In this document: one piece after another, positions 3,715 to 35,419 of the stretch
How positions within the stretch are numbered: position 1 is the first letter of the stretch
Layout of the letters: each line of letters begins with the position of its first letter
Origin: a virus
Lineage: Duplodnaviria; Heunggongvirae; Uroviricota; Caudoviricetes
Virus record (IMG/VR): IMGVR_UViG_2545824713_000010
Strand: one strand, 5' to 3'
Length of the DNA stretch: 36,682 nt
Notes under the pieces: generated by a model
The model's database searches: none
Seen by the model: only the letters and a program-made list of their open reading frames with translations
Told to the model about the DNA's origin: nothing
Translations under genes and position numbers: made by a program

Positions 3715-4010
3715 GCACCATCAATCACCAGAAGCTACGCGAACTGGCATTTGCCCTGCAACGAATGGCAACGCTTCAAAAATTACTGGCATTTCGCGCA
3801 ATGCTCTCGCCGTCTGCTGTGCTGGCGCTGCAGGATGAGCTGGAGCACGCCAGAACCACACCTCTAGCCATTCGCCTGACGCTCCGTCATGAAATCGAGG
3901 ATTTCTGCGCGACGTTGGAGGCGCCAGGTGAACCGGAAACGCCGGAAGCAATACAGCAAGAGCTGCTGCAACGCATTGACAAGGTTTTTGATTTTTTTCT
4001 GAACCACTAA
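3711..4010 (+). CDS. Hypothetical early protein
   Basis: 99-aa ORF, ATGA overlap with the upstream ORF. Confidence 0.5.
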   Translation: MSTINHQKLRELAFALQRMATLQKLLAFRAMLSPSAVLALQDELEHARTTPLAIRLTLRHEIEDFCATLEAPGEPETPEAIQQELLQRIDKVFDFFLNH

Positions 4011-7906: not shown

Positions 7907-8866
7907 ATGAAAATTTGTATCGACGACGGCTCCACCAACATCAAGCTGGCATGGACTGAGAACGGCGAACGCCGCAACGCCATCAGCCCGAACAGCTTCA
8001 AGTCGGAATGGTCTGCGCCGTTCGGTGGCACGCAGCCCGCGAACTACATGCTTGATGGCGTGCGCTATGGTTTTGATCCGGTCAGCGATCGCTTTGTCCA
8101 GACGACCGACACGCAATACCAGTACAGTGATGTGAATGTCATTGCCATTCATCACGCGCTGGTCAAATCAGGCATCACGCCACAGGAGGTGGATGTGGTT
8201 GTCACCCTGCCACTGAGCGAGTATTTCGACACAAACGCACAGCCGGACATAGCCAACATCAACCGCAAAAAAGCGAACGTTATGCGCCCGGTGGAGTACC
8301 AGAACGGCGAAGCATTCACTATCCGTAACGTGCGGGTTATGCCTGAATCCATTCCGGCTGGCTTTAAGGCACTGGCTGACATGAGTCCGTTTGAATCCCT
8401 GCTGATTGTGGATTTGGGCGGAACCACGCTGGATGTGGCAAAGGTTCAGGGGCAGCTGGCAGGTATCAGCCAGGTGTTTTGCGATCCACACGTAGGCGTT
8501 TCCCTGATGGCTGATGCCGTGCTGTCGGTGATGGCCACTAACGGTATGCGTACCAGTCACCACATCGCCAATACCATTATTGAGCACCGTCACGATGAAG
8601 CCTGGCTGCGCCAGCACATTCACAATGACGCGCATTACAACAGCCTGATGGCGGTTATTCGTGAAAAGGAGGAGACACTGAAACAACGAGTGATCCGCGC
8701 GCTGGCGGGTTTTTCCGGTTACGGGCGGGTGATGGTTGTCGGTGGAGGGGCGGAGATTGTGGCACCCGCTATCCGCGAAGCCTGCGGAGTTAATGCGACT
8801 TTCATCACGGACGGGGTGCCACATTTTGCTCTGGTTAATGGGCTGTACGCAATGAACAAGGAGTAA
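7907..8866 (+). CDS. parM: ParM/StbA-family actin-like ATPase
   Basis: 319 aa; N-terminus MKICIDDGSTNIKLAW closely matches plasmid R1 ParM/StbA as recalled (FIDDGSTNIKLQW), and YSDVNVIAIHHAL resembles the R1 WQYSDVNVVAVHHAL region; length equals ParM; RBS aagga. Confidence 0.8.
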   Translation: MKICIDDGSTNIKLAWTENGERRNAISPNSFKSEWSAPFGGTQPANYMLDGVRYGFDPVSDRFVQTTDTQYQYSDVNVIAIHHALVKSGITPQEVDVVVTLPLSEYFDTNAQPDIANINRKKANVMRPVEYQNGEAFTIRNVRVMPESIPAGFKALADMSPFESLLIVDLGGTTLDVAKVQGQLAGISQVFCDPHVGVSLMADAVLSVMATNGMRTSHHIANTIIEHRHDEAWLRQHIHNDAHYNSLMAVIREKEETLKQRVIRALAGFSGYGRVMVVGGGAEIVAPAIREACGVNATFITDGVPHFALVNGLYAMNKE

Positions 8867-8870
8867 ACCA

Positions 8871-9182
8871 ATGACGACACCAACCAGAAGAATAAGTTTC
8901 TATCTGAAGCCAGCTGCCGTCAAGAACGAAGGAGAAGCATGCGCCTGGCTGGACAGCCTTACACCAGAAGCCCGCAAAAGCGGCCAACGCGTGGCTTTTC
9001 TGGCCGGGCTGGCACTTCTGAAGACGAATCCGGCAGAGGCTTACCGACTGGCCGCATGGGCTGATGATGAGATGTTACCTGTGACACAAATCAGCTCAAA
9101 AAAGTTTGAAGCACAGTCTGCACCAGTGGCTAAGATAACCAGCCAGATGGCTGGGAATATCCGGGCGTTATTTCCTGAGTAA
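8871..9182 (+). CDS. parR: ParR-like ribbon-helix-helix adaptor
   Basis: 103 aa directly after parM. RISFYLKP and LDSLTPEARKSGQRVAFLAGLAL parallel R1 ParR (RTIAFKLNP, LDSIPQGERSRLNRAALTAGLAL) as recalled from memory. Confidence 0.55.
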   Translation: MTTPTRRISFYLKPAAVKNEGEACAWLDSLTPEARKSGQRVAFLAGLALLKTNPAEAYRLAAWADDEMLPVTQISSKKFEAQSAPVAKITSQMAGNIRALFPE

Positions 9183-21511: not shown

Positions 21512-23794
21512 ATGAGTACCACAACACGAAAATTTAAAACCGTTATCACCGATACGGGTGCAAAAAAATTAGCTCAGGCAGCCGCGCCAGATGGTAAGCC
21601 TGTCCGCCTGACTCATATGGCCGTGGGCGACGGTGGCGGCACGTTGCCCACACCAGACAGTAAGCAGACCCGTCTGGTGCATGAGGTGTGGCGACACACT
21701 GTTAATCGCGTCATCCTGGACGCAACACATCAGAACCGCATTATTGCGGAGCTGGTTATTCCTCCTGAAACGGGCGGATTCTGGATCCGGGAAATTGGTG
21801 TATTTGATGAGCACGGCGATTTAATCGCGGTGGGCAATACTGCCGAAAGTTACAAGCCAGCCGTTGCCGAAGGGTCCGGTCGTGCACAAACGTTTCGCAC
21901 CATTCTGACCGTATCCAGCACTGCCACCGTGGCGCTTACCGTGGATAACACCATGGTGATGGCCACAGTGGATTACGTGGATGACAAACTGAAAGAGCAT
22001 GAACGGTCACGACATCACCCGGACGCCTCGCTGACCGCAAAAGGCTTTGTTCAACTCAGTAGCGCCACTAACAGCGTGTCTGAAACGCAGGCTGCAACGC
22101 CGAAAGCAGTAAAGGCAGCATATGACCTGGCTAATGGCAAATACACCGCACAGGACGCTACCACTGCGCGGAAAGGGATAGTTCAGCTCAGTAGCGCCAC
22201 CAACAGCACGTCTGAAACGCAGGCTGCAACGCCGAAAGCAGTAAAGACCGCGTATGATCTTGCTAACGGTAAATATACTGCGCAGGATGCCAGCACGACG
22301 CGAAAAGGCCTTGTCCAGCTCAGTAGCGCCACCAACAGCACGTCTGAAGCGCAGGCTGCAACGCCGAAAGCAGTAAAGGCCGCGTATGACCTTGCTAGCG
22401 CAAAATATACCGCTCAGGACGCCACGACGACACAAAAAGGGATAGTCCAGCTCAGTAGTGCCACCAACAGCACGTCTGAAACACTGGCCGCGACACCGAA
22501 AGCGGTTAAGGCGGTAATGGATGAAACGAACAAGAAAGCGCCTTTAAACAGTCCTGCGCTGACCGGAACGCCAACAACGCCAACTGCGCCAAAAGGGACT
22601 AATAATACTCAGATCGCAAGCACGGCTTATGTGATGGCCGCGATTGCCGCACTTGTAGACTCGTCGCCTGACGCACTGAATACGCTGAACGAGCTGGCGG
22701 CGGCGCTGGGCAACGACCCGAATTTTGCGACCACCATGACTAAAGCGCTTGCGGGTAAGCAACCGAAAGATGCCACCCTGACGGCGCTGGCCGGGCTTGC
22801 TACTGCGGCAGACAAGTTTCCGTATTTTACGGGGAATGATGTCGCCAGCCTGGCAACTCTGACAAAAGTCGGGCGGGATATTCTTGCGAAATCGACCGTT
22901 GCCGCTGTTATCGAATACCTCGGTTTACAGGAAATGGTAAACAGGGCCAGGAACGCGGTGCAAAAGAATGGCGATACCTTGTCCGGTGGGCTTACTTTTG
23001 CAAACGACTCAATCCTTGCCTGGATTCGAAATACTGACTGGGCAAAGATTGGTTTTAAAAATGATGCTGACAGCGATACTGATTCATTCATGTGGTTTGA
23101 AACAGGCGACAACGGCAATGAATATTTCAAATGGAGAAGCCGCCAGGGCACCACAACAAAAGACCTGATGACGCTGAAATTGAATGCACTAAATATTCTG
23201 GTTAATGCCGTCATTAATGGCAGTCTTGGAGTTGGTACAACGAATGCGTTAGGTGGTAGCTCAATTGTTCTTGGTGATAATGATACCGGATTTAAACAGA
23301 ATGGTGATGGTATTCTGGATGTTTACGCTAATAGTCAGCGAGTATTCCGCTTTCAGAATGGAGTTGCTATTGCTTTTAAAAACATTCAGGCAGGTGATAG
23401 TAAAAAGTTCTCGCTATCCAGCTCCAACACCTCCACAAAGAATGCAACGTTTAATTTATGGGGTGCTTCAACCCGTCCAGTAGTTGCAGAGTTAGGCGAT
23501 GAGGCAGGATGGCATTTCTATAGCCAGCGAAATACAGATAACTCGGTAATATTTTCTGTTAACGGTCAGATACAGCCCAGCAACTGGGGGAATTTTGATT
23601 CACGCTATGTAAAAGATGTTCGCCTGGGTACGCGTGTTGTTCAATTGATGGCGCGTGGTGGTCGTTATGAAAAAGCCGGACACGCAATTACCGGATTAAG
23701 AATCATTGGTGAAGTAGATGGCGATGATGAAGCCATCTTCAGACCAATACAAAAATACATCAATGGCACATGGTATAACGTCGCACAGGTGTAA
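21512..23794 (+). CDS. H: Tail fibre protein, P2 gpH-like, with constant N-terminal part and invertible C-terminal receptor-binding part
   Basis: 760 aa; four tandem 43-aa repeats; crossover site inside the gene at 22908..22933; C-terminus ends INGTWYNVAQV, like the alternative segment. Confidence 0.9.
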   Translation: MSTTTRKFKTVITDTGAKKLAQAAAPDGKPVRLTHMAVGDGGGTLPTPDSKQTRLVHEVWRHTVNRVILDATHQNRIIAELVIPPETGGFWIREIGVFDEHGDLIAVGNTAESYKPAVAEGSGRAQTFRTILTVSSTATVALTVDNTMVMATVDYVDDKLKEHERSRHHPDASLTAKGFVQLSSATNSVSETQAATPKAVKAAYDLANGKYTAQDATTARKGIVQLSSATNSTSETQAATPKAVKTAYDLANGKYTAQDASTTRKGLVQLSSATNSTSEAQAATPKAVKAAYDLASAKYTAQDATTTQKGIVQLSSATNSTSETLAATPKAVKAVMDETNKKAPLNSPALTGTPTTPTAPKGTNNTQIASTAYVMAAIAALVDSSPDALNTLNELAAALGNDPNFATTMTKALAGKQPKDATLTALAGLATAADKFPYFTGNDVASLATLTKVGRDILAKSTVAAVIEYLGLQEMVNRARNAVQKNGDTLSGGLTFANDSILAWIRNTDWAKIGFKNDADSDTDSFMWFETGDNGNEYFKWRSRQGTTTKDLMTLKLNALNILVNAVINGSLGVGTTNALGGSSIVLGDNDTGFKQNGDGILDVYANSQRVFRFQNGVAIAFKNIQAGDSKKFSLSSSNTSTKNATFNLWGASTRPVVAELGDEAGWHFYSQRNTDNSVIFSVNGQIQPSNWGNFDSRYVKDVRLGTRVVQLMARGGRYEKAGHAITGLRIIGEVDGDDEAIFRPIQKYINGTWYNVAQV
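22042..22525 (+). repeat. Four tandem ~129-bp coding repeats (KG.VQLSSATNS.SETQAATPKAVKAAYDLANGKYTAQDA)
   Basis: Repeats start near 22042, 22175, 22304 and 22436; typical phage tail-fibre repeat. Confidence 0.75.
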
Positions 23795-24325
23795 ATGATG
23801 CAGCATTTAAAAAATATTAAGTCAGGAAATCCAAAAACAAAAGAGCAATATCAGCTAACAAAGAATTTTGATGTTATCTGGTTATATACAGAAGACGGTA
23901 AAAACTGGTATGAGGAAGTGAAAAACTTTCAGCCAGACACAATAAAGATTGTTTACGATGCAAATAATATTATTGTCGCCATCACTAAAGATGCCTCCAC
24001 GCTTAACCCTGAAGGTTTTAGCGTCGTTGAGGTTCCCGATATTACAGCCAACCGCCGCGCTGATGATTCAGGAAAGTGGATGTTTAAGGATGGAGCTGTA
24101 GTTAAACGGATTTATACGGCAGACGAACAGCAACAACAGGCCGAATCACAAAAGGCCGCGTTGATTTCCGAAGCTGAATCAGTCATCCAGCCGCTGGAAC
24201 GCGCTGTCAGGCTGAATATGGCAACAGACGAGGAACGCACACGACTGGAAGCATGGGAACGCTACAGCGTTCTGGTCAGCCGTGTGGATACGGCAAATCC
24301 TGAATGGCCACAAAAGCCTGAATAA
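23795..24325 (+). CDS. G: Tail fibre assembly chaperone, P2 gpG-like
   Basis: 176 aa (P2 G is 175 aa); conserved N-terminal half shared with the inverted paralogue. Confidence 0.85.
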
Positions 24326-24330
24326 AAATT

Positions 24331-24350
24331 AAGGCCCGATAGCGGGCCTT
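24331..24350. terminator. Bidirectional hairpin between convergent chaperone genes (aaggcccg atag cgggcctt)
   Basis: Perfect 8-bp GC-rich stem in the 28-bp spacer between the two convergent genes. Confidence 0.45.
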
Positions 24351-24353
24351 GTT

Positions 24354-24887
24354 TCATTCTGGTTGTTCTGGAAACGTTACTGGCAGGCTGGAGGTGTCTG
24401 TGGATTCGACCTTCTGCGCATAGAGCATCCACTCGGTTAATTTTTGTTTATTCTCGTTGGAAATGATACCCAGCCGTAGCTGTGAGTCCCATAGCTGGGT
24501 TTTATCCCTGACGAGCTGTAGCAGGCTTTGCTTTTCATTTTCCGCTTGTTGCCTCTGCTCTTCCTCGGTATAAGTTCGCTTTATCACTACGCCATCTTTG
24601 AACATCCATTTCCCCGAAATATCAGCCCGGCGATTTGCTGTAATATCAGGTAATTCAACGACGCTTGCACCCTCTGGATTAATTGCTGAAACATCCTTTT
24701 CAATACAAATAATAACGCCGTTATGGTCATAGACCATTTTCAAAGTGTCTGGCTGGAAATTCTTTTGTTCCTCATACCAGTTTTTTCCATCATCTGAATA
24801 AAGCCATTTGATGTTAAATTGCTTTGTTAGCTGGTATTGCTCTTTTGTTTTAGGGTTGCCAGCAGTAATGTTTTTTAAGTGCATCAT
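24354..24887 (-). CDS. Alternative tail fibre assembly chaperone (G', Mu U'-like)
   Basis: 177 aa; N-terminal half near-identical to G ([29 protein letters not shown]), C-terminal half divergent. Confidence 0.8.
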   Translation of the reverse strand: MMHLKNITAGNPKTKEQYQLTKQFNIKWLYSDDGKNWYEEQKNFQPDTLKMVYDHNGVIICIEKDVSAINPEGASVVELPDITANRRADISGKWMFKDGVVIKRTYTEEEQRQQAENEKQSLLQLVRDKTQLWDSQLRLGIISNENKQKLTEWMLYAQKVESTDTSSLPVTFPEQPE

Positions 24888-24889
24888 CG

Positions 24890-25834
24890 TTAAATACTCC
24901 CCGCGTTATACCACGTCCCATTAATGCAATACTGAATTGGCCTTGCCTGAGTTGTATCAATTAATTCATCACGGTTTCCGTTAACTGAACCCGTAACGAC
25001 ATAACCTGACCTGTCAGACCAGCCGGGACCATTCCATGTCTGAACAGATGACAGACCGCCAAGGCGAATACCTGTAATAAACCTTGAGTTACATTCTGCC
25101 TGCGTATATGCTCCAACATCTCCCGCAGAGGGTTTGCGGGTTGTGGTGTAAAACTCTGACCAGTCAGCTTCAAAGCCATAACCATCTCGCGCTGAACGAT
25201 AATAAATACCGCCGTTCTTATAATTCACACGGAACTGAACCGCCGGGCAACTCCCCGCATTCATATTAAAGTGAAGAATCAATGTTGACGCTCCACTAAT
25301 AGTCGCATTATAAACGCCGCTATTTGAGTTCCATCCAACAGCTTTGTCATTTCCAACAGTGCTTCCTGTCTGCCCTAAAGCAAATGCAGGCTGCTGGTTT
25401 TTCGTGTTGTAGTCTCTTCGCCAGCCAGGAGCATAAGCATTACCATGATTAATATAGGTGAATTGAGCGTTAGTAATTCCGCCACCGCTGGATGTACTCG
25501 GCGTAGTAACGCGTATGGTCATTGCGCCGCGAGTGCCAATAACTTCCACCACAGCACCTGCAAGACAAATATTTCCGCAACCTGTATCTGTAATGACCTT
25601 ATTGTTTGCATAAGCCCATGAGCCTTTGCACATCCAGTAAGGATGGTTAAATGCCCCCTGACTCTCCAGCCACGAAATGAATTGTGCGGTTGTCCAGGTC
25701 TGACTATCGCCACCAATATTCAGCCATGCGCTATATGCGCGGCAGGCACCAATATTTTTGGTGAAGGTATCTTTTCCTGGAATATCTGCGCCGTTCTGTT
25801 TTTTCTGTAATGCGCCAGAAGCCTGATTTACCGT
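24890..25834 (-). CDS. Alternative tail-fibre C-terminal segment (Hv'), no own start; expressed only after inversion fuses it to the H constant part
   Basis: Open frame continuous from the right crossover site to the stop at 24890 (track ORF 24890..25633); ends QYCINGTWYNAGSI, parallel to the H C-terminus. Confidence 0.7.
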   Translation of the reverse strand, partial: TVNQASGALQKKQNGADIPGKDTFTKNIGACRAYSAWLNIGGDSQTWTTAQFISWLESQGAFNHPYWMCKGSWAYANNKVITDTGCGNICLAGAVVEVIGTRGAMTIRVTTPSTSSGGGITNAQFTYINHGNAYAPGWRRDYNTKNQQPAFALGQTGSTVGNDKAVGWNSNSGVYNATISGASTLILHFNMNAGSCPAVQFRVNYKNGGIYYRSARDGYGFEADWSEFYTTTRKPSAGDVGAYTQAECNSRFITGIRLGGLSSVQTWNGPGWSDRSGYVVTGSVNGNRDELIDTTQARPIQYCINGTWYNAGSI

Positions 25835-25914
25835 TTCCTGTAAACCGAGGTTTTAGATAATGGCCGTTTCTGGCCTGCATGGCATGATTTGCGCTTTTGG
25901 ACGGGAGATTCAGT

Positions 25915-26505
25915 GTGCTGATTGGCTATGTAAGGGTATCAACAAATGACCAGAATACAGACCTGCAACGAAACGCTCTTGTTTGTGCAGGATGTGAACA
26001 AATATTTGAAGATAAATTAAGCGGGACAAAGACTGACCGACCGGGATTAAAACGCGCTTTAAAGCGCCTTCAACAAGGTGACACGCTGGTTGTCTGGAAA
26101 CTGGATCGCCTCGGGCGAAGCATGAAACATCTGATTTCTCTCGTCGGGGAACTACGGGAGCGAGGGATTAATTTTCGCAGTCTGACCGACAGCATAGATA
26201 CATCTTCTCCAATGGGGCGTTTTTTCTTCCACGTGATGGGTGCCCTGGCTGAAATGGAACGTGAATTAATTGTTGAACGTACACTGGCCGGACTGGCGGC
26301 AGCGCGCGCACGGGGGCGCACAGGCGGACGTCGACCGAAGCTGACAAAAGAACAGCATGAGCAAATAGCAAGGCTGATTAAAAACGGTCACGACAGAAAA
26401 CAACTGGCAATAATTTACAGCATTGGTATATCGACAATTTATCGTTACCACCCCGCAGGAGAATCAAGTGGAACAATTGAGAAGAGTAAACAAAATAACC
26501 GCTAA
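25915..26505 (+). CDS. Serine DNA invertase, Hin/Gin/Cin/Pin family
   Basis: GTG start gives MLIGYVRVSTNDQNTDLQRNAL, strongly matching e14 Pin / Hin as recalled; catalytic-serine motif VRVST and a C-terminal HTH. Confidence 0.85.
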   Translation: MLIGYVRVSTNDQNTDLQRNALVCAGCEQIFEDKLSGTKTDRPGLKRALKRLQQGDTLVVWKLDRLGRSMKHLISLVGELRERGINFRSLTDSIDTSSPMGRFFFHVMGALAEMERELIVERTLAGLAAARARGRTGGRRPKLTKEQHEQIARLIKNGHDRKQLAIIYSIGISTIYRYHPAGESSGTIEKSKQNNR

Positions 26506-26527
26506 TCTGGCCATTAGCGGTTTTTGT
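26498..26527. terminator. Bidirectional rho-independent terminator between the convergent invertase and U genes (accgctaat ctggcc attagcggt then TTTTT)
   Basis: 9-bp stem overlapping the invertase stop, T-run on the plus strand and A-run upstream for the minus strand. Confidence 0.55.
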
Positions 26528-26533
26528 GTTAAA

Positions 26534-27028
26534 TCAGAACAGCCCTTTAACGGAGCTGGCCGCGCTGTTAAGGGATAATGTGACCTTATCTTTGAAGCCG
26601 GACAGCATATCGCTGAACGATGAGGATTGCAGGCGCTCCCGCAAATCCTCATCACAGCGTTCAAGGGTCAGTGAAAATTCTATTTTTTTCGCCTTACCGT
26701 AGCGATCAAATTCAGAGCGGGTCGTACTCGTTTCGGTCAGGACATACATGCCGTAAATCTGCCCGACGCCATCAATCAGAGGCCAGGGGCGTCCTGTATA
26801 TGCCTGCGTGGTCAGCAGCGACAGCGACACTTCGCCACCTGTAATTTCAGGATAAAGCACGCCTGAAAGCACGATGCGATCATTACCTGCACCGATATAC
26901 TGCCAGCTTGCTGAACGGTTAACGCGTTCATTTTTCACATGCCGCCAGCTTTTGTTTTGCTGTAACTGCTGATGCGGCAGCGTGCGCAACTCAAAAACAA
27001 ACATGCCGTAGATCATCATCATGACCAT
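26534..27028 (-). CDS. U: Tail protein, P2 gpU-like
   Basis: 164 aa; N-terminus resembles P2 U as recalled; position downstream of T on the same strand. Confidence 0.75.
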   Translation of the reverse strand: MVMMMIYGMFVFELRTLPHQQLQQNKSWRHVKNERVNRSASWQYIGAGNDRIVLSGVLYPEITGGEVSLSLLTTQAYTGRPWPLIDGVGQIYGMYVLTETSTTRSEFDRYGKAKKIEFSLTLERCDEDLRERLQSSSFSDMLSGFKDKVTLSLNSAASSVKGLF

Positions 27029-27034
27029 GACTCC

Positions 27035-29878
27035 TCAATCTTTATCGTAAAAACTGCCACGCCCGGCACGGGCGCGCCGTTCCATTTCTGCCCTGACCAT
27101 TTCGCCAACCAGTTTCGCCAGTTCACGGGGATTCTGCGTAACAACGTTATGCAGATGAACATGAATTTCACCGCCAAATCCGGAGGCAACAGGCTCCCGG
27201 TTACGGGAAGTTGCAGGAACTGATGCCACTGGCGATCGTATAGCCTCCGCCACCGGGCGGGAGCTGGCCGCAACAACAGGGACCAGCGCCGGAGGCAGCG
27301 GAGCCGGAACTACGGGGGTGATATTAATTGCGGGGGCAGGCTTACTGACCTGCGGAATCTTCCGCTCCTGCCACTCCCCACGAACGGCAAGTGCGCGGGG
27401 CAGGTTCTTAAAGACAATATCGCCGGGGCCAATACGTTTTTTCGTCTCATCAACCAGCTTACCTGTGTTATCAGCAATTTTGCTGAGCCTGCGTAGCGTA
27501 CCGGTATTGTTGTCTGTGAGCGGTTTGTTGTCTTTGGGTTTATCACCTCCGGAGCCATTTCCATTTTCCACAGGCTTCGGCGGATTGATTTTCGCCAGGT
27601 CCCCCTGAAGCAAGGCAACCTTGTCCTGAAGAATGGCCGCACGCTGTGCGTCTTCGATTTTCTTTCTCGCCCGTTCCGCTTCATCCGGAAGCACTCCGAG
27701 CTTTTCAAGTATCCACGCCAGTGAATCCATCAATGCTTTTGTTGGTGTCAGGACAAGCTCTATCGCTCCACCAAGTACCCTGCCAAATACCTCGCCAGCA
27801 CTGGTACATTTATCCAGCGTTTCCTTGCTGGACTCCATCGGTGACAGCAGCGATTTAAACCAGTTAAACACCTGGCTGATCCCGCTTCCGATTGCGTCAA
27901 AAACAGGACCGAACCGTTCAAAGGTTTCGCGCAACGGAGCCAGCCGTTCCATAATCCCACTGAACACCCCTGCATAAAACGCCTTGATGGGTTCCCAGTA
28001 TTTCCAGATGAGAACCGCCGCAGCCACAAACGCAGCAGCAATCAATCCGACCGGGCTGAACAGCGCCCCGATAGCGCCCCCCAGTAACGAAACGGAACCC
28101 GTCACCATTCCCCATAGTGCTGGCAGGAGCCTGACAGCATTCATTGATCCGGTCAGGAGGGAAAAGCCAAGACGCAGTTTTGCCAGCGGGCCAGCAAGCA
28201 CACCAATAGCCAGCGACAACGAGCCGACCGTTGCAGTCATCGCCAGCAACGCCCCACCTGCAATCAGTAGCTGGCGCGTCAGTGCCGGATGGGCCTGCGC
28301 CAGCGCCGTCACCTTTGATACCACCCGCGTGAGCCACTGCGTGACAGAACGCAGCGGACCGTCAATCAGATCTGCAATGCGGATGCGCAACCCTTCCCAT
28401 GCACTGCCGAGTGATTTCAGATCGCCGTCAAGGTTGTTGGCCATAACCTTTGCCGTGCGTTCAGCCTCACCGCGTGCGCCTTCAAGTTCTTTTCTCAGTT
28501 TAGGTAAGGATCCGTCACCTGCCGCATCAACGAGGGCCATAAATGATGTGAAAGCCTCTTCTCCGGCAATGTCCTTAAAGAACGATACCCGATCAACTTC
28601 TCCGTATTTGCGGGTGGCTTTATAAAGGTCAGTCAGCAGATCTTCCATCGGGCGCATTTTGCCCCCGGCATCCGAGACAGACACGCCCAGCTCTTTCAGC
28701 GCCTCTGCTGCCGCCTTTGGCGGTGATGCCAGACGAGCCAGGCTGGCACGCATTGCCGTCCCGGCATCACTTCCCCTGATACCCATATTCGCCAGCACGC
28801 CCGCCATCGCTGCGGCCTGCTCCAGCGATATTCCCAGCTTACCCGCCACCGGACCTGCATATTTCATGGTTTCGCCCAGTGCGCGAAGGTCAGTGTTGGT
28901 ACGGGTAAACGCTGCAGTGAGTGTGTCACCGACCCGGTCCATCTGGTCAGCAGAAAGGCCGAACTGCGTCAGGATATTTGAGCCAATATCCGCCGTCTCG
29001 CCGAGATCCATACCGCCAGCCGTTGCCATGCTCAACACGCCGGGAAGCGCAGCCTGAATGGCCTGCGGTGTGAAGCCAGCCATTGCAAGAAATGCCTGCC
29101 CACTGGCGGCATCGCCTGCGGTGAACTGCGTTTCAGAGCCAAGTTTTAACGCCTGCTCACGCAGCGCCTTAAACTGCGGGCTGTTCTGGTCGATTCGCGT
29201 CAGCGCCTGAACGCGGGACATCTCTTTCCCGAACCCGATCGCAGGCTGCAAAAAACGCCCGGCAGCATAGCCGCCCGCCGCTGCCGCACCAGTTGCCAGC
29301 GCACCACCTGTTTTCAGTTTTCCCGCGGTTTCCTGCACGCGCGAATACCGCTCACGCGCCCGCGTTACACGCGCAAGCGCCTGCCGTTCGCGTTCAAGCT
29401 GGTTGTTGTACTGTTCGGTGCGTCTGATGGCCTGCTGGATGGTGTTATCGCTGCCTGTCAGGGAAATGCCGTGGCGTTTCAGCTCTCCGCCAAGCTCCCG
29501 CATTTTCTGAATTTCCCGTGTGCGCGATTCATTCAGGCGTTCAAGCCGGGTGCTTAACTGCTGCATCAGCTTTTGTTGTTTTTCGCTGAGCACTGTACCC
29601 GTGCGTTGTAACTGATTAAGGGCGTTAAGCTGGCGTCGCGCTTTCACGATGCCCGCATCCGCTGTACTGACAGCGTCGCGGGCGCGCTCAAATGAACGCG
29701 CCTGACGCTCGAGATTTTTGATCGCCCCCTGCGTTCGCTGGATGGAGTCACCAAACCGCCCCATCAGGCGGCGGGCGTTTTCGGCAGGCCGGGTCAGCCT
29801 GTCAACGGCGCTGAAAGCGACCCGGATATCAAGAGTCTTCATTATCTGCATTCCCGCTGCGAAGTGCCGCCCGCTCAC
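27035..29878 (-). CDS. T: Tail tape measure protein, P2 gpT-like
   Basis: 947 aa; coiled-coil N-terminus, Ala/Gly-rich hydrophobic central region; follows the E/E' chaperone pair. Confidence 0.85.
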   Translation of the reverse strand: MSGRHFAAGMQIMKTLDIRVAFSAVDRLTRPAENARRLMGRFGDSIQRTQGAIKNLERQARSFERARDAVSTADAGIVKARRQLNALNQLQRTGTVLSEKQQKLMQQLSTRLERLNESRTREIQKMRELGGELKRHGISLTGSDNTIQQAIRRTEQYNNQLERERQALARVTRARERYSRVQETAGKLKTGGALATGAAAAGGYAAGRFLQPAIGFGKEMSRVQALTRIDQNSPQFKALREQALKLGSETQFTAGDAASGQAFLAMAGFTPQAIQAALPGVLSMATAGGMDLGETADIGSNILTQFGLSADQMDRVGDTLTAAFTRTNTDLRALGETMKYAGPVAGKLGISLEQAAAMAGVLANMGIRGSDAGTAMRASLARLASPPKAAAEALKELGVSVSDAGGKMRPMEDLLTDLYKATRKYGEVDRVSFFKDIAGEEAFTSFMALVDAAGDGSLPKLRKELEGARGEAERTAKVMANNLDGDLKSLGSAWEGLRIRIADLIDGPLRSVTQWLTRVVSKVTALAQAHPALTRQLLIAGGALLAMTATVGSLSLAIGVLAGPLAKLRLGFSLLTGSMNAVRLLPALWGMVTGSVSLLGGAIGALFSPVGLIAAAFVAAAVLIWKYWEPIKAFYAGVFSGIMERLAPLRETFERFGPVFDAIGSGISQVFNWFKSLLSPMESSKETLDKCTSAGEVFGRVLGGAIELVLTPTKALMDSLAWILEKLGVLPDEAERARKKIEDAQRAAILQDKVALLQGDLAKINPPKPVENGNGSGGDKPKDNKPLTDNNTGTLRRLSKIADNTGKLVDETKKRIGPGDIVFKNLPRALAVRGEWQERKIPQVSKPAPAINITPVVPAPLPPALVPVVAASSRPVAEAIRSPVASVPATSRNREPVASGFGGEIHVHLHNVVTQNPRELAKLVGEMVRAEMERRARAGRGSFYDKD

Positions 29879-30065
29879 GCCAGCTAACCACTTCGCCGGG
29901 CGTCATCATGAAGATTTCGGCGGGCGACCAGTTAAAAATAACGGCAATATCTGCCACAAAGTCTTCTATGTGCTCAAAGCACACAACCGTGATCAGGCTT
30001 CCGTCGCCTGTTCGTTCTTCCCGCCAGAGTCCGCACCGCTCAAAAAATTTACGGCAACCACACAT
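29829..30065 (-). CDS. E' extension reached by programmed -1 frameshift (E+E' product)
   Basis: The -1 frame ORF 29829..30065 overlaps the E 3' end; slippery T TTT TTG on the minus strand at 30041..30047, as in P2 E/E' and the lambda G/GT paradigm. Confidence 0.55.
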   Translation of the reverse strand: MCGCRKFFERCGLWREERTGDGSLITVVCFEHIEDFVADIAVIFNWSPAEIFMMTPGEVVSWRERAALRSGNADNEDS

Positions 30066-30358
30066 AACTGAATAAAGTCACGGGATGCCATTTTTTTGAT
30101 CGTCACTTCATCCAGTCGCGGTGATGTCACGCGTGACAGCAGCGTAAACATGGATTCCGCTTTCAGATTCAGCACATCAGACAGCGACAAATCTCGCAGA
30201 GATCCAGCCTGCTCAATAGCCCCGGTGATCTCCACATACGTGATTTTTTCGCCGCCTCGCTCAATTGGTTGGGTAAGTTTTACGCCACGCTCACTGGTTT
30301 CTTTCACAGTGTCAGTAACTACCGTGTTTTCGGTATCGATGTTTTTCGTCTCTTTCAT
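29993..30358 (-). CDS. E: Tail assembly chaperone, P2 gpE-like (frame 0 product)
   Basis: 121 aa between the tail tube and tape measure genes; contains the slippery T-run. Confidence 0.7.
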   Translation of the reverse strand: MKETKNIDTENTVVTDTVKETSERGVKLTQPIERGGEKITYVEITGAIEQAGSLRDLSLSDVLNLKAESMFTLLSRVTSPRLDEVTIKKMASRDFIQLCVVAVNFLSGADSGGKNEQATEA

Positions 30359-30412
30359 CAGGAAACTCCTTTCAGTCAGAGGCGACGCACTGCGCCGCCT
30401 GCATATTACTTA

Positions 30413-30925
30413 TCAGCCAAGCCCAAGCGCGGAACGGATGCGATCGGGCACAATGTCCTTGCCGTCCTTCCGGTAAATGAAGTTCAGCAGGTCAATCTCC
30501 CACAACGGGCGATCGTTAACGCTCAGCTTGTAGTAGGTGTTTTTAATGGCGTAAGTGTGTGATGTGGCTTCGCCCTGTTTGGCTTCCCCCATATCAATTT
30601 CCGTCACACGTCCGCGCATTTCGACTTCATACAGGTCGCTTTCTGCATCGGTGTAGTATTCACCCGCAAAACGCAGCAGCGTGCCGTCAATCGTGCCGCC
30701 ATACTTAAGGAACAGCTCACGAACTGCGCCCCCCATGACAAAGCTCGCATCAAGCGCGGAGTCGTCCAGACCGAGATCAATACTTACCGCCCCCATCATG
30801 CCACCACCCCGGTAGCTGTCGGTTTTGCGCGTCAGTTTGGGCAGAGTGACGGACGTCACCTTACCCACTTCGTTTTCACCATCCACAAACAGCGTAAAAA
30901 AGCGAAGATGTTTTGGCACAGCCAT
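30413..30925 (-). CDS. FII: Tail tube protein, P2 gpFII-like
   Basis: 170 aa (P2 FII is about 172 aa); immediately downstream of the sheath gene. Confidence 0.85.
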   Translation of the reverse strand: MAVPKHLRFFTLFVDGENEVGKVTSVTLPKLTRKTDSYRGGGMMGAVSIDLGLDDSALDASFVMGGAVRELFLKYGGTIDGTLLRFAGEYYTDAESDLYEVEMRGRVTEIDMGEAKQGEATSHTYAIKNTYYKLSVNDRPLWEIDLLNFIYRKDGKDIVPDRIRSALGLG

Positions 30926-32109
30926 CAGGCACCTCCCAGCACCGCAAATGCGGGTTCAAAGTATTCATCAGTAAACGTCTGGTAAAGCTCCATATCTTCC
31001 AGCGGGGGAACAGGCGTATATTTGTAGCGAATACGCACACGCCCCTGACGTAAATCCGTGGTGCTGTTATCCACCACGTCATACCAGCACTCCGCGCCAA
31101 TCAGTTTCCCGGCAGTCACCAGTGAATCCAGTTTTGCCCTGATGGCGCTGATAACATCCTTCACGTTCGCAGGCGTCAGTGGACTGTCGATGGTTTCAAA
31201 CTGCGCTTCCGCAATTGAATCAGCCAGCACCTGTGCGGTTCGGGTATACACCTCAAAGATGTAGGCGTTCGTTTCCGGTGTGCGGTTGCCCCAGAAGCGG
31301 AACCCGTTGCGACGAATAATGGTCGTGATTTCTTTGTTATTGAGGCTGTTGGCATCACTGTCTTCGGCCTGCAACGACCAGAACACATGCCTCGACATCC
31401 CCAGCACATTTTTAACCGGAACGTTGGACAGCGATTTGTGCCAGCCCTGCTCATGGTCAATGTACGCACGAAGGCCGCACGCATAAGCAGGAGCGGGGAA
31501 CGTTTCGTTTTTGCCACTTTTCGGGTTGTAGGCGATGAAGTCCGGCCATAAGAGCATCACCTCACGTTCGTTGAATTTCTGGCGGTAGGTAATTGCCTCA
31601 GCCATCGTGTTACAGTCATGACATGAGGCATACACAAACGCGCGCAGTTTACCCGCAATCACGCACAGGGATTTTGTCACCGCCTCCGTGTCCAGCTCCG
31701 GCGCGGCCAGAATACGCGGACGGTATCCGATGCTTTCATCCTGCTCTGCAACAAGCAGCGCATACATCCCCGTATAGCTGCCGTCAGATTCAGAACCACC
31801 GATAACCAGTTGATCCTGCGTCTTACCGCCTTCTTCTTTGTGTTCAGCCACGCGAACGACGATCACCTTTGTGCTCACCTGGTCTGCGATGGCCTTAAGC
31901 GCACGATAAAGCGTCCCCGTTGTCCCGCATTTTCCCAGCACGTCATTGACGCGGGTCAGCAATGTGGGCTTGTTCAGCGGGAACAGCTTCGCGTCCGCAT
32001 CATCCGCCGTTGCCACGATACCGATAACACTGGAATCAACATCATTAATCGCTGTTACCAGGTCGGTATTTTCCGTAACACGGGCACCATGAAAACGAGT
32101 TTCACTCAT
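30925..32109 (-). CDS. FI: Contractile tail sheath protein, P2 gpFI-like
   Basis: 394 aa; FPLNKP, LRAF.Y, WPDF, EQGWHK.LSNV, IRR.GFRFWGNRT and YTPVPPLE match P2 FI as recalled. Confidence 0.9.
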   Translation of the reverse strand: MSETRFHGARVTENTDLVTAINDVDSSVIGIVATADDADAKLFPLNKPTLLTRVNDVLGKCGTTGTLYRALKAIADQVSTKVIVVRVAEHKEEGGKTQDQLVIGGSESDGSYTGMYALLVAEQDESIGYRPRILAAPELDTEAVTKSLCVIAGKLRAFVYASCHDCNTMAEAITYRQKFNEREVMLLWPDFIAYNPKSGKNETFPAPAYACGLRAYIDHEQGWHKSLSNVPVKNVLGMSRHVFWSLQAEDSDANSLNNKEITTIIRRNGFRFWGNRTPETNAYIFEVYTRTAQVLADSIAEAQFETIDSPLTPANVKDVISAIRAKLDSLVTAGKLIGAECWYDVVDNSTTDLRQGRVRIRYKYTPVPPLEDMELYQTFTDEYFEPAFAVLGGA

Positions 32110-32266
32110 AGCTTCAGCCCCTTGTATCCGTTAAATGATTCGGCAACAATCATCACCCACCACGCGCGTAATCTCACCCCCTGCGCCGTTCTCCCGCCAC
32201 GGCGACAACAAAAAGCAGTAACCCCCTCCGCACGCACATGCGACCATGCCGCACAGGGAGGGAAAG

Positions 32267-33376
32267 ATGACCGACACCACCATGCAATTGCTCAGTCAGA
32301 GCACAGACCCCGTGAAAATGCCGGATTTTGATATTCTCGCGGAGGGGGAAACGCTGTCCGGCGTGGCAGAGCGCCTGATGAGTCTGTCACTGACCGACAA
32401 CCGGGGATTTGAAGCGGACCAGCTCACCATCACGCTGGATGATGCGGATGGTCAGTTGCAGCTACCGCCACGGGGCGCGCGCCTGACGGTTCTCATTGGC
32501 TGGAAAGGAGAACCGCTGACAGAAAAAGGCACTTACATTGTTGATGAAATCGCTCACGAAGGACCGCCGGACAGGCTGACGGTTTCAGCCAGAAGCGCAG
32601 ATTTTCGGGGTGAATTTAACGTTAAACGTGAGGTGTCCTGGCATGATGTGACCGTTGAGCGAGTGGTATCCGCCATCGCTCATCGGTACGGTCTGAAACC
32701 GCAAATCAGCGAAATGCTGATGGATATCGAAATCGACCACGCCGACCAGACCGAAGAAAGTGACATGTCCTTCCTTACGCGCATGGCGGAAATGCTGGGC
32801 GCAATCACCACGGTAAAAAGCGGTAATCTGTTATTCATCATGCCCGGCGGTGGCGTGAACGCACAGGGCCAGCCGTTGCCATCGTTCGCCATCACACGCA
32901 GCAGCGGCGATCGCCATCAGTTTCGCATTGCTGACCGCGAGGCGTATACGGGGGTACGCGCTTACTGGCTTGATCTTAATTACGGGAAAAAGAAAAAAGT
33001 CAGCGTGAAACGCCGCAAACCGCCAAAACCCAAAAAGGAGAAAAGCAGCAGCCGTGAAGGTGATTATATGGAAGGCGCAGAAGGCAATGTGTTTGTGTTA
33101 CGCAAGACTTATCAGAACGAGCAGGCAGCAAGACGCGCAGCAGCGGCAAAATGGCAGCAGCTACAACGCGGAGCCGCATCATTCTCCATCACGCTGGCGC
33201 GTGGACGCGCAGAACTCTATCCCGAAATGCATGGCACGGTGAAAGGCTTCAAAAGTGACATCGACAATCAGGACTGGATTATTGCAAAAGCTGAGCACAC
33301 CATTGATAACAGCGGCTTTACCACACAGCTTGAGCTTGAGGCAAAAATCCCGGAATGGATAGCGGAAACAGAGTGA
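32267..33376 (+). CDS. D: Tail protein D (late control gene D family)
   Basis: ORF 32246..33376; the ATG at 32267 has RBS gggaggg; about 369 aa. Confidence 0.85.
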   Translation: MTDTTMQLLSQSTDPVKMPDFDILAEGETLSGVAERLMSLSLTDNRGFEADQLTITLDDADGQLQLPPRGARLTVLIGWKGEPLTEKGTYIVDEIAHEGPPDRLTVSARSADFRGEFNVKREVSWHDVTVERVVSAIAHRYGLKPQISEMLMDIEIDHADQTEESDMSFLTRMAEMLGAITTVKSGNLLFIMPGGGVNAQGQPLPSFAITRSSGDRHQFRIADREAYTGVRAYWLDLNYGKKKKVSVKRRKPPKPKKEKSSSREGDYMEGAEGNVFVLRKTYQNEQAARRAAAAKWQQLQRGAASFSITLARGRAELYPEMHGTVKGFKSDIDNQDWIIAKAEHTIDNSGFTTQLELEAKIPEWIAETE

Positions 33377-33767: not shown

Positions 33768-33953
33768 ATGTGGAAAGGCCCCGAGTCAACTTTAACGTTA
33801 ACCCGAGGCCCTAACCATCTACCCTTAGCAAGTGATAGGTTAGCGCCTCCCCGAAAAAGGAGCAAGCGCTATGTCGCAAAAATCGCTTACGGCCATCACG
33901 TTCTGCGTGACGGCAATCCTCATCATCTGGATGCTGCACGGTTCGCTGTGTGA
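33768..33953 (+). CDS. Possible mok-like overlapping reading frame of the hok-like locus
   Basis: 61-aa ORF in a different frame that overlaps the hok-like start, the arrangement seen for mok/hok; weak evidence. Confidence 0.3.
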   Translation: MWKGPESTLTLTRGPNHLPLASDRLAPPRKRSKRYVAKIAYGHHVLRDGNPHHLDAARFAV

Positions 33954-34011
33954 AATACGGATGAGCTTCTGGGGAGCGGAGTTTGCGGCGTTCTTACAGT
34001 GTAAGCAGTAA
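33871..34011 (+). CDS. Hok/Gef-family type I toxin-like small membrane protein (46 aa)
   Basis: MSQKSLTAITFCVTAILIIWMLHGSLCEIRMSFWGAEFAAFLQCKQ: a hydrophobic helix then SLCEIR and EFAAF, matching Hok (KSLCEIR...EVAAF) as recalled; RBS aaggag; below the ORF-track cutoff. Confidence 0.6.
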   Translation: MSQKSLTAITFCVTAILIIWMLHGSLCEIRMSFWGAEFAAFLQCKQ

Positions 34012-34020
34012 GGAAACCGC

Positions 34021-34042
34021 GACGGGGGAGTAATCCCCCGTC
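34021..34042 (+). terminator. Stable hairpin after the hok-like stop (gacggggga gtaa tcccccgtc)
   Basis: Perfect 9-bp GC stem immediately 3' of the toxin ORF; no clear U-tract. Confidence 0.4.
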
Positions 34043-34188
34043 AATCAGTTGCCGGGATAAGGTCGATAAGGCATCCTGTCTCACTCTATACCAGCTAATC
34101 AATTGACACATATCAATAAAAAGCCTGATAAAATCAAAATATTTTGTTACAAATGTCAGCTAGTAGAGGGCCAAAGGAGGCAGATTAT

Positions 34189-34521
34189 ATGGCATTAATC
34201 AAATGTCCTGAATGCCAGAAAGAGGTGATCGATTCAGTATTGTCTTGCCCTGCTTGTGGCAAACAACTGAAAAATCTTAAACGCTCATTTTTTGGAGAAC
34301 TCATTAAGTGTTTTTTTATATTATTTAATATTTTTATAATCTACACGATTTGTATTGGGCTAAGAGAGGTGGGTGAAATAATAAACAACGCCACATCCGA
34401 TGTCGAAAAAGCCGGTACAGTTATTGGTACGGGCTTAGGTTTAATTGCTATTGGAGGCTTATGGGTTATTGGCAATATCATTATCGGAAATTTAGTATTT
34501 CTTACTAAACCAAAGGGATAA
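34189..34521 (+). CDS. Zinc-ribbon membrane protein (CPEC...CPAC then two TM segments)
   Basis: ATG with RBS aaggagg; AT-rich gene; the N-terminal C-x2-C-x13-C-x2-C is followed by hydrophobic and Gly-rich helices. Confidence 0.55.
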   Translation: MALIKCPECQKEVIDSVLSCPACGKQLKNLKRSFFGELIKCFFILFNIFIIYTICIGLREVGEIINNATSDVEKAGTVIGTGLGLIAIGGLWVIGNIIIGNLVFLTKPKG

Positions 34522-34525
34522 CAAA

Positions 34526-35419
34526 ATGAAAAATGTGATTATTTCTATAGGCGCATCATTTATATCAATTAGTGTGCTACCTGCTCACGCAGCAACTGAG
34601 CATAATAACTTTAAGTCATCACTCCAGTGCCGAGCAATAGAAAATAATAAAGAAAGACTTTCTTGTTATGATAAGTCAATACAACCGACTCGAACGACAG
34701 TTGCTGAAAAATTCGAAAGCAGAGATCAATGCCCTGATGAGAAAGATGATGACAGACGTTTATCTTGTTATGACCGTTTTTTTTCTCCAACATTTACTCC
34801 GCCTGTAAGCTCAAAATCTAAAGTGAAACAGCTAGTAACAACAGAGACTCAGCAACCAAATCTTTCTGAGATATCTAAATGTCGAGCAGAAAACGATAAA
34901 GAAACTAGAGTAAACTGCTACGATAAACTATTTTCACAGGAAAAAGCTACGCAATCTAAATCAAAATTAGAGAAAGCCACAGACTCAGGAAAATGGCACA
35001 CATCCATTACTACATCGCCAATTGATGATTCGAAAAATGTAATTTTATCGTTAGAAAGTGATGATTATATAAGAACTCCATTTGGAGAAGCGGTTACCCC
35101 TACTCTGTTTATAGCTTGCCGAGAAAAGAAAACCGAAGTATTTCTTAATTGGGATGTATATTTAGGCCTTGAACAAACCAGCATGCTGTATCGCCTTGAT
35201 AAACAGAAAGCAGTTGAGCGAAACTGGCTAGTATCTACAGATACAAAGGCTGTTTTTTATAAAGGCAATGACATTAACTTCATCAGAAAACTAGCCAACT
35301 CAAACAAAATGTATGCAAGAATAACCCCTTATAATGAAAGCCCTGTAAGTGCAACTTTCAATTTAAACGGCCTGTCAACCACGCTAAAACCGCTTCAAGA
35401 AGCCTGTAACTGGAAATAG
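34526..35419 (+). CDS. Secreted/periplasmic protein with three Cys-pair repeats (C-x9-11-R/V-x-CYD)
   Basis: N-terminal signal peptide ending AHA-ATE; repeats LQCRAIENNKERLSCYDK, QCPDEKDDDRRLSCYDR and KCRAENDKETRVNCYDK; AT-rich. Confidence 0.6.
   Translation: MKNVIISIGASFISISVLPAHAATEHNNFKSSLQCRAIENNKERLSCYDKSIQPTRTTVAEKFESRDQCPDEKDDDRRLSCYDRFFSPTFTPPVSSKSKVKQLVTTETQQPNLSEISKCRAENDKETRVNCYDKLFSQEKATQSKSKLEKATDSGKWHTSITTSPIDDSKNVILSLESDDYIRTPFGEAVTPTLFIACREKKTEVFLNWDVYLGLEQTSMLYRLDKQKAVERNWLVSTDTKAVFYKGNDINFIRKLANSNKMYARITPYNESPVSATFNLNGLSTTLKPLQEACNWK

Follow-up and report, generated by a model that had tools for sequence, protein, structure and literature searches.

A probable host-range switch of the Mu G-segment type in a P88-like prophage of Escherichia coli

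The 36,682-nt stretch of DNA analysed here (IMG/VR record IMGVR_UViG_2545824713_000010, Caudoviricetes; hereafter the window) is a prophage of Escherichia coli that carries, within and directly downstream of its tail-fibre gene H, a segment bounded by two inverted crossover sites of the gix type. The segment holds two convergent cassettes, each comprising a fibre C-terminus and a chaperone gene, and a gene for a serine DNA invertase of the Gin family lies just outside the right-hand site. The segment occurs in both orientations among close relatives of the prophage. It is very likely that this element is a working host-range switch of the type of the Mu G segment, carried by a P88-like E. coli prophage. 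Switches of this kind are known, and public phage records already contain the same element; the one mildly new angle is an invertase that is chimeric and has a lineage-specific DNA-binding domain.

Crossover sites and tail-fibre cassettes

A repeat search of the window revealed an inverted repeat of 34 nt, at 22908–22941 and 25827–25860, with 91% complementarity. Each arm includes a 26-bp site (Table 1) at the position given in an initial annotation of this DNA, which was made from the sequence alone and had taken the right-hand site to be nearly equal to Mu gix. Comparison with the Mu gix sites read from record AF083977 confirmed this, as the left site shows two differences and the right site one (25/26). 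A degenerate gix pattern allowing up to three mismatches had exactly two matches in the 36.7-kb window, on opposite strands, and none in 100 dinucleotide-preserving shuffles of it; hence, no gix-type sites are expected in the window by chance.

Read in their opposite orientations, the TC and GA cores of the two sites are one and the same dinucleotide. Strand exchange can be followed by religation only if the central dinucleotides are equal, and the cores of both sites fit. The pair therefore has the features of the ends of a Mu G-type segment, namely two 26-bp crossover sites that are inverted and share the central dinucleotide. The left site is identical in relatives of either orientation.

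The left site lies inside H, and thus the constant N-terminus of the fibre is joined to one of two C-termini. The constant part (21512–22919) has an N-terminal collar domain of the P2 type, and the Pfam matches of H are the Phage_tail_fib N-terminal domain, four Phage_fiber_2 repeats of 44 aa, and Gp34_trimer. The variable part in the current orientation, Hv(+) (22921–23794), is 95.3% identical over 295 aa to residues 375–669 of P2 gpH and only 45% identical to Mu S. The chaperone encoded downstream, G(+), shares 97% identity with P1 U, 94% with Mu U and 93% with P2 G. In the constant part, the tandem 132-nt units that encode the 44-aa repeats (22039–22510) are mutually 85–86% identical, and the alignments with P88 and phiSM are shifted by one unit there, which suggests that the repeat copy number varies among relatives.

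The second cassette lies on the minus strand. Its open frame (24890–25834, 314 aa) has no start codon and ends at a stop codon within the outer half of the right site. The encoded C-terminus, Hv', shares 96.3% identity with Mu Sv' over 323 aa, and the associated chaperone G' is 97.2% identical to Mu U'. Hence, the two C-termini, which the initial annotation had described as exchangeable receptor-binding domains, are of the P2 gpH type and the Mu Sv' type, respectively. No promoter-like site was found on the minus strand upstream of Hv' in a scan for the sigma-70 consensus, and promoter-like sites inside the segment occur at chance level only (4 found, 6.9 expected). All of the open reading frames listed in the initial annotation are present, and its description of two convergent cassettes, one of them silent and lacking both promoter and start codon, holds. 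The G+C-rich hairpin between the two chaperone genes is probably a bidirectional terminator, as judged by the T-runs on both of its strands.

When 22920–25848 was inverted in silico, the constant part of H and Hv' were joined in frame to give a fibre of 788 aa. Both this form and the current form of 760 aa are open, the crossover site lies within the fibre reading frame in each, and each is followed by its own Caudo_TAP chaperone gene. The ratio of nonsynonymous to synonymous substitution rates (dN/dS) was 0.078 for Hv' and 0.063 for G' in comparison with Mu; against the relatives compared, it was 0.06–0.08 for the silent cassette and 0.07–0.11 for the expressed one. These values indicate that the silent cassette is kept under purifying selection.

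The invertase and the two orientations among relatives

The product of the gene adjacent to the right site has a Resolvase domain (PF00239, E = 2.1e-50) and an HTH_7 domain (PF02796, E = 3.5e-13, residues 138–181). Of the proteins with solved structures, it matches Gin best (4M6F/3UJ3, E ~1e-100), with residues 1–103 nearly identical, and so its initial assignment to the Pin/Gin family stands. Translation probably begins at the GTG codon at 25915 and not at the TTG codon at 25897, since the GTG start is the one used in Mu gin and annotated by RefSeq for the closest genome. The protein carries no inactivating change; the presence of such a change had been named in the initial annotation as evidence that would speak against the switch. 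The nucleophile motif VRVS(9)T is intact (VRVSTNDQ, with Ser9 in the YVRVST motif of the family), and 117 of the first 120 residues are those of Mu Gin.

The C-terminal 76 residues share only 40 with Mu Gin. At the DNA level, the stretch from the right gix site to about codon 120 is 88–100% identical to Mu, with no mismatch between the GTG start and 26024, and identity to Mu gin then falls to ~55–60%. This sharp change is a recombination breakpoint in the 3' third of the gene (26270–26505), which makes the invertase a chimera with a lineage-specific DNA-binding domain. That domain aligns with those of Gin and Hin (1HCR) at ~50% identity each; an origin of the C-terminus from Hin was considered and rejected, since Gin and Hin are about equally distant. 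At an identity of at least 81%, the domain is matched only in phages of the P88 type and in a single P1-like phage. Helix 1 of the domain keeps Q, R and L (EQIARL, compared with EQISRL in Hin 1HCR), and the corresponding Hin residues Gln151, Arg154 and Leu155 are uniquely conserved in Fis/enhancer-dependent invertases (McLean et al., PMC3798978).

The 5' end of the invertase gene includes a stretch, 25933–26004, that corresponds to nt 19–90 of cin, annotated in the P1 record AF234172 as 'enhancer of Cin-mediated C-segment inversion'. It is identical to Mu gin at 72 of 72 positions and to the P1 enhancer at 55 of 72, and it may be the equivalent of the Fis-dependent recombinational enhancer.

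The orientation of the segment in nature was assessed with junction probes in a set of 5,426 complete E. coli genomes. With the probe for the right junction, which includes the invertase of this lineage, the window orientation was found in 81 genomes and the inverted one in 69; the left-junction probe gave 103 and 126, respectively. Thus, the initial annotation's other stated ground for doubt, a single orientation only, does not apply to the close relatives of the window prophage. In E. coli 99-3165, a prophage with the same flanking genes (97–99% identical) carries the segment inverted and has an annotated fibre of 788 aa, with which the fibre predicted for the inverted window shares 768 of 788 residues. 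The in-silico inverted window is collinear with one prophage of E. coli DS26-1 (95.6% identity over 9 kb), and the alignment of the uninverted window with that prophage breaks exactly within 22908–22945 and 25822–25860, the intervals that contain the inversion breakpoints in relatives.

The DS26-1 genome (NZ_CP035879.1) includes two P88-like prophage copies straddling the record origin. They lie about one phage length apart, have flanks that are 99.97–99.98% identical, share an internal stop in gene I and a frameshift in U', and differ by inversion of a 2952-bp segment with breakpoints in the gix repeats. The pair may be a genuine tandem lysogen, or overlapping sequence that the assembly produced from mixed-orientation reads; in both cases, the two orientations are present in the DNA of one strain. 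Relatives of both orientations have the two window sites exactly and invertases identical to that of the window at 189–196 of 196 residues, and it may be expected from this that the window invertase supports Fis-stimulated inversion in cis.

Homologous recombination through RecA, with the 34-nt inverted repeats as partners, could in principle have made the inversions in relatives in place of the serine invertase, and with repeats of this length and 91% complementarity such exchange is formally possible. For RecA, an imperfect repeat of 34 nt is about the shortest efficient substrate or is already too short, the gix sites with matching cores adjoin an intact Gin homologue and an enhancer stretch identical to that of Mu, and the ~50:50 split of orientations indicates frequent switching. 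An origin of the inversions through RecA is thus extremely improbable.

Several findings weigh against a switch that works in this strain. The outer half-sites, TTATCGAATACC and TTATCTAAAACC, are unlike those of Mu, and the DNA-binding domain of the invertase is distant from those of both Gin and Hin; on both counts, we infer the activity of the invertase on the exact sites of the window. A consensus scan revealed no sigma-70-like promoter for the invertase gene. A crude scan of 25861–26320 for Fis motifs (G-N13-C with an A/T-rich centre, in pairs 48 bp apart) gave no informative pair, and the enhancer equivalence therefore rests on identity to Mu gin over a stretch annotated in P1 cin. Accordingly, the enhancer for which the initial annotation proposed a search in this part of the gene may be present as judged by the identity to Mu, while the motif scan did not add to it. 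The two genomes nearest to the window (99.3–99.6% identical) have its orientation. Finally, there are signs of decay in certain relatives: U' carries a frameshift in the ATCC 43896 and DS26-1 prophages, and in phiSM the right site is degenerate (four mismatches) and ~500 nt of Sv' are missing, so that the phiSM switch is probably locked. Positions of decay in the compared stretches are 22855–23387 of L001, 7582–8114 and 8143–8669 of L007, 6855–7387 of L011, and ~6573–6845 of L004, L007 and L011 being the DS26-1 stretches.

The missing promoter-like site, the ~50% identity of the DNA-binding domain, the orientation of the nearest genomes and the decay of a cassette or right site in some relatives would all suit a frozen switch, whose architecture is intact by descent and whose segment no longer flips at a meaningful rate, the polymorphism having arisen in older events. 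The invertase might, for example, be unexpressed, or its chimeric DNA-binding domain ill-matched to the sites. However, none of the five components is damaged in the window, purifying selection acts on the silent cassette, orientations are split near-evenly among genomes with the same invertase type, and virtually identical copies with opposite orientations occur in the one DS26-1 assembly. Moreover, the 80 nt upstream of the invertase gene and its first ~350 nt are 88–100% identical to Mu gin. Freezing of the switch is therefore regarded as very unlikely, and a switch that still operates is the preferred reading.

The mechanism of inversion by invertases of this group has been summarised (PMC3575834, PMC3798978). 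In the window, invertase dimers would bind the two inverted 26-bp sites, and host Fis bound at the enhancer in the 5' end of the invertase gene would help to assemble the synaptic complex. The invertase would then cut at the central TC/GA, rotate half of the complex by 180 degrees and religate the ends, whereby the segment is flipped. The constant part of H would be driven by the late promoter of the V operon and would be expressed with the P2-gpH-type C-terminus and the G/U-type chaperone in the current orientation, or with the Mu S'-type C-terminus and the U'-type chaperone after inversion; the hairpin in the middle of the segment would stop transcription in either orientation. A population of lysogens would thus release two kinds of virion with different receptor specificity, directed to the lipopolysaccharide core. 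We infer that the invertase is active in this strain, that it depends on Fis, and what the actual host ranges would be.

The natural chimera, with its joint at about codon 120, and the outer half-sites that differ from those of Mu could mean that the P88-type switch is a partly insulated variant of the Gin system with an altered site preference. This proposal is unlikely; were it correct, the segment could flip in polylysogens without regard to invertases of Mu, e14 or P1 in the same cell, and this would also be the first documented Peduoviridae phage to alternate between receptor specificities of the P2 type and the Mu G(-) type.

The fibre annotated in an assembled P88-like prophage depends on the orientation that was captured, being either the 760-aa P2-type or the 788-aa Mu-S'-type protein. 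Both forms should be weighed in the prediction of host range, in the engineering of P88-like phages for therapy and in prophage typing. Assembly, too, can be upset where orientations are mixed, and the duplicated prophage in DS26-1 may be read in this way.

Table 1. Features of the invertible segment and its surroundings in the window.
Feature	Position	Strand	Basis or remark
Tail-fibre gene H, current form, 760 aa	21512–23794	+	Open reading frame; Pfam matches
Left gix-type site	22908–22933	+	TTATCGAATACC-TC-GGTTTACAGGAA; inside gene H, at ~codon 470; core dinucleotide 22920–22921
Invertible segment, core to core, ~2.93 kb	22920–25848		Breakpoints in relatives; DS26-1 copies
Chaperone gene G(+), 176 aa	23795–24325	+	Caudo_TAP, E = 7.7e-38; expressed in current orientation
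Hairpin, G+C-rich, T-runs on both strands	24330–24351		Terminator-like site between the convergent chaperone genes, centre of segment
Silent chaperone gene G', 177 aa	24354–24887	-	Caudo_TAP, E = 1.9e-36
Silent fibre C-terminus Hv', no start codon	24890–25847	-	Match to Mu Sv'; Pfam gp37_C
Right gix-type site	25835–25860	-	Plus strand reads TTCCTGTAAACC-GA-GGTTTTAGATAA
Gin-family serine DNA invertase gene, 196 aa, probable GTG start	25915–26505	+	Resolvase and HTH_7 domains; just outside right site
Putative enhancer-equivalent stretch (Fis-dependent recombinational)	25933–26004		5' end of invertase gene; function predicted
Hairpin between invertase and gpU genes	26497–26522		Inverted repeat; terminator-like
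gpU gene, convergent with invertase gene	26534–27028	-	Phage_P2_GpU, E = 1.5e-39

The host element

The prophage extends from an integrase gene (1–1020) to gpD and ogr, after which the host gene flk follows. Its gene set looks complete, with integrase, gpA, portal, terminase, capsid, lysis, baseplate, tail and ogr genes. The P2-type set (gpA, Q portal, P terminase, O, N, M, L, X, V-W-J-I-H-G, FI/FII/E/T/U/D and ogr) was assigned from the RefSeq annotation of a 99.6%-identical prophage and from matches to Pfam Phage_GPA, Phage_GPD and Phage_P2_GpU. That prophage, of E. coli ATCC 43896, has its 99.6% identity over the switch region. The P2-family host named in the initial annotation is thus borne out by the gene set and can be specified further: judged by its nearest phage relatives, P88, P884B11 and phiSM, which are classified in Xuanwuvirus, the element is a member of that genus (P88-like) within Peduoviridae rather than a Peduovirus of the P2 type.

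In P2, the Z/fun slot follows G and the tail operon from FI to D is co-directional. This canonical order, G, Z/fun slot, FI FII E T U D, is not found in the window, where the FI-FII-E-T-U block (26534–32109, minus strand) is inverted relative to P2 and convergent with H-G, and where gpD and ogr are on the plus strand (32246–33376), gpD being divergent from FI. The initial annotation had the switch fill the Z/fun position. This is only loosely correct: the switch lies directly downstream of G, as Z/fun does in P2, but its other neighbour is the convergent gpU gene, and hence the location is not the G-to-FI interval of P2. The hairpin between the invertase and gpU genes is probably a bidirectional terminator, as suggested by its inverted repeat.

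A switch might also serve mainly the host, by diversifying a tailocin-like particle or by providing chimeric fibres that block the adsorption of other phages. A precedent comes from reports of inversions of the Pin type (PinQ/PinR) in cryptic prophages, which inhibit adsorption of T2 (PMC12529663, bioRxiv 10.1101/2025.03.28.646004), and a possible host benefit has been raised in PMC4272514. Against this, the element appears to be a complete phage with no sign of domestication in the window, and the genus has inducible, plaque-forming members, P88 and phiSM, according to PMC5285337 and PMC6456863, respectively. A mainly host-serving role is therefore highly improbable, and a switch of the host range of the phage itself is preferred.

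Further cargo genes were observed at two places in the window. Between the gpA and portal genes, a slot (7907–9182, plus strand) holds a type II plasmid-partition pair, in a P2-family prophage that integrates. The pair consists of a ParM/StbA actin-like ATPase of 319 aa (PF06406, E = 3.5e-82, and PF21523) and a ParR/Plasmid_stab_B-like protein of 103 aa. It is common to P88, P884B11, 520873 and others, in which the genes are annotated as encoding partition proteins, and three hypothetical genes occupy its place in the ATCC 43896 prophage. Between ogr and flk, three genes at ~33870–35419 are either phage cargo or host genes of the attachment site. The homologue of the first in ATCC 43896 is annotated as a hok/gef-family toxin gene; it is followed by genes for a zinc-ribbon protein (34144–34521) and a VasI/TagO-like type VI secretion-associated protein (34526–35419).

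Comparison with known inversion systems

The G segment of Mu with Gin, the C segment of P1 with Cin and the P segment of e14 with Pin are textbook inversion systems. The element in the window is most similar in design to the first, which is also found in D108. Both have 26-bp gix sites (24/26 and 25/26 in the window) within 34-bp terminal inverted repeats, the left site in the fibre gene, two convergent cassettes of C-terminus and chaperone, and the invertase gene just outside the right site. The proteins of the S'/U' cassette are 96–97% identical, residues 1–120 of the invertase match at 117 of 120 positions, and the 72 nt of the enhancer-equivalent stretch are the same. However, Mu is a transposable phage and the window prophage a P2-family myovirus. 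Its (+) cassette is of the P2 gpH type, at 45% identity to Mu S, the constant part of its fibre is P2-H-like with Phage_fiber_2 repeats, the DNA-binding domain of its invertase is ~53% identical to that of Gin, and its segment is 2.95 kb long, compared with 3.08 kb in Mu.

Effectively the same element is found in P88, in the Xuanwuvirus phages P884B11, 520873 and 503458, in Citrobacter phage phiSM and in the related E. coli prophages. In these P88-type phages, the order is likewise V-W-J-I-H-G, G', Hv', invertase, and then the convergent gpU and tape-measure genes. DNA identity is 93–95%, the invertases are identical at 182–196 of 196–199 residues and annotated as 'DNA invertase', and the gix sites of P88 are those of the window. 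What differs is allelic: how many 44-aa fibre repeats are present, mosaic patches within Hv, and the degenerate right site and truncated Sv' of phiSM. In the library searched, the P88 paper (PMC5285337) contains no mention of inversion, and the phiSM paper (PMC6456863) mentions the invertase in passing only. The P88-type switch thus seems to have been deposited and annotated without explicit study.

P2 itself shares with the window the constant part of H (73–91%), the expressed C-terminus (95%) and G (93%), but has no second site, alternative cassette or invertase. The statement of the initial annotation that canonical P2 lacks this element is therefore correct for the switch and has to be refined for the sites, because gene H of P2 retains a scar, one gix-like relic with the sequence TTATCGAATATC-TC-GGTTTACAGGAA, which differs from the left site of the window by a single mismatch. 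It lies at 3905–3930 of the compared stretch of AF063097, where the constant part of H meets the variable part.

For two P2-like prophages of enteropathogenic E. coli E2348/69, the coexistence of both orientations at invertible tail-fibre loci has been measured in clonal cultures (Goldberg et al. 2014, PMC4272514). As in e14 with Pin, a recombinase of the Gin/Pin family lies beside an invertible segment of fibre and chaperone genes, and in E2348/69 the host is a P2-like prophage, with one segment located between the fibre genes and FI, the true Z/fun position. These loci differ from that of the window in their pin-type repeats (…AAACCTTGGTTTGGGAGAA…), in segments of ~1.9–2.0 kb and in other variable domains. 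As their repeats are of the pin type and no gix-like match is present in the locus, they were rejected as the same module and are, by analogy, a precedent of the same kind only. Long reads have also confirmed an inversion in a prophage of E. coli FDAARGOS_1059 (Milman et al. 2023, PMC9881135). It was considered as a case in a P88-like prophage and rejected, since that prophage is Mu-like, with a com gene and a Mu-type baseplate.

The C segment of P1 and P7 encodes homologous U and U' chaperones (95–97%), likewise joins a constant part to alternative variable parts, and has an enhancer annotated within the 5' end of cin in P1. In P1, however, the cix sites have a TT core and differ in 5 of their 26 positions. 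Cin shares 68% identity with the window invertase, and the segment, 4.2 kb in length, is flanked by cin on the opposite side. The element in the window is conceptually nothing new, being the classic bet-hedging host-range switch of Mu and P1 brought by modular exchange into a phage of the P2 family.

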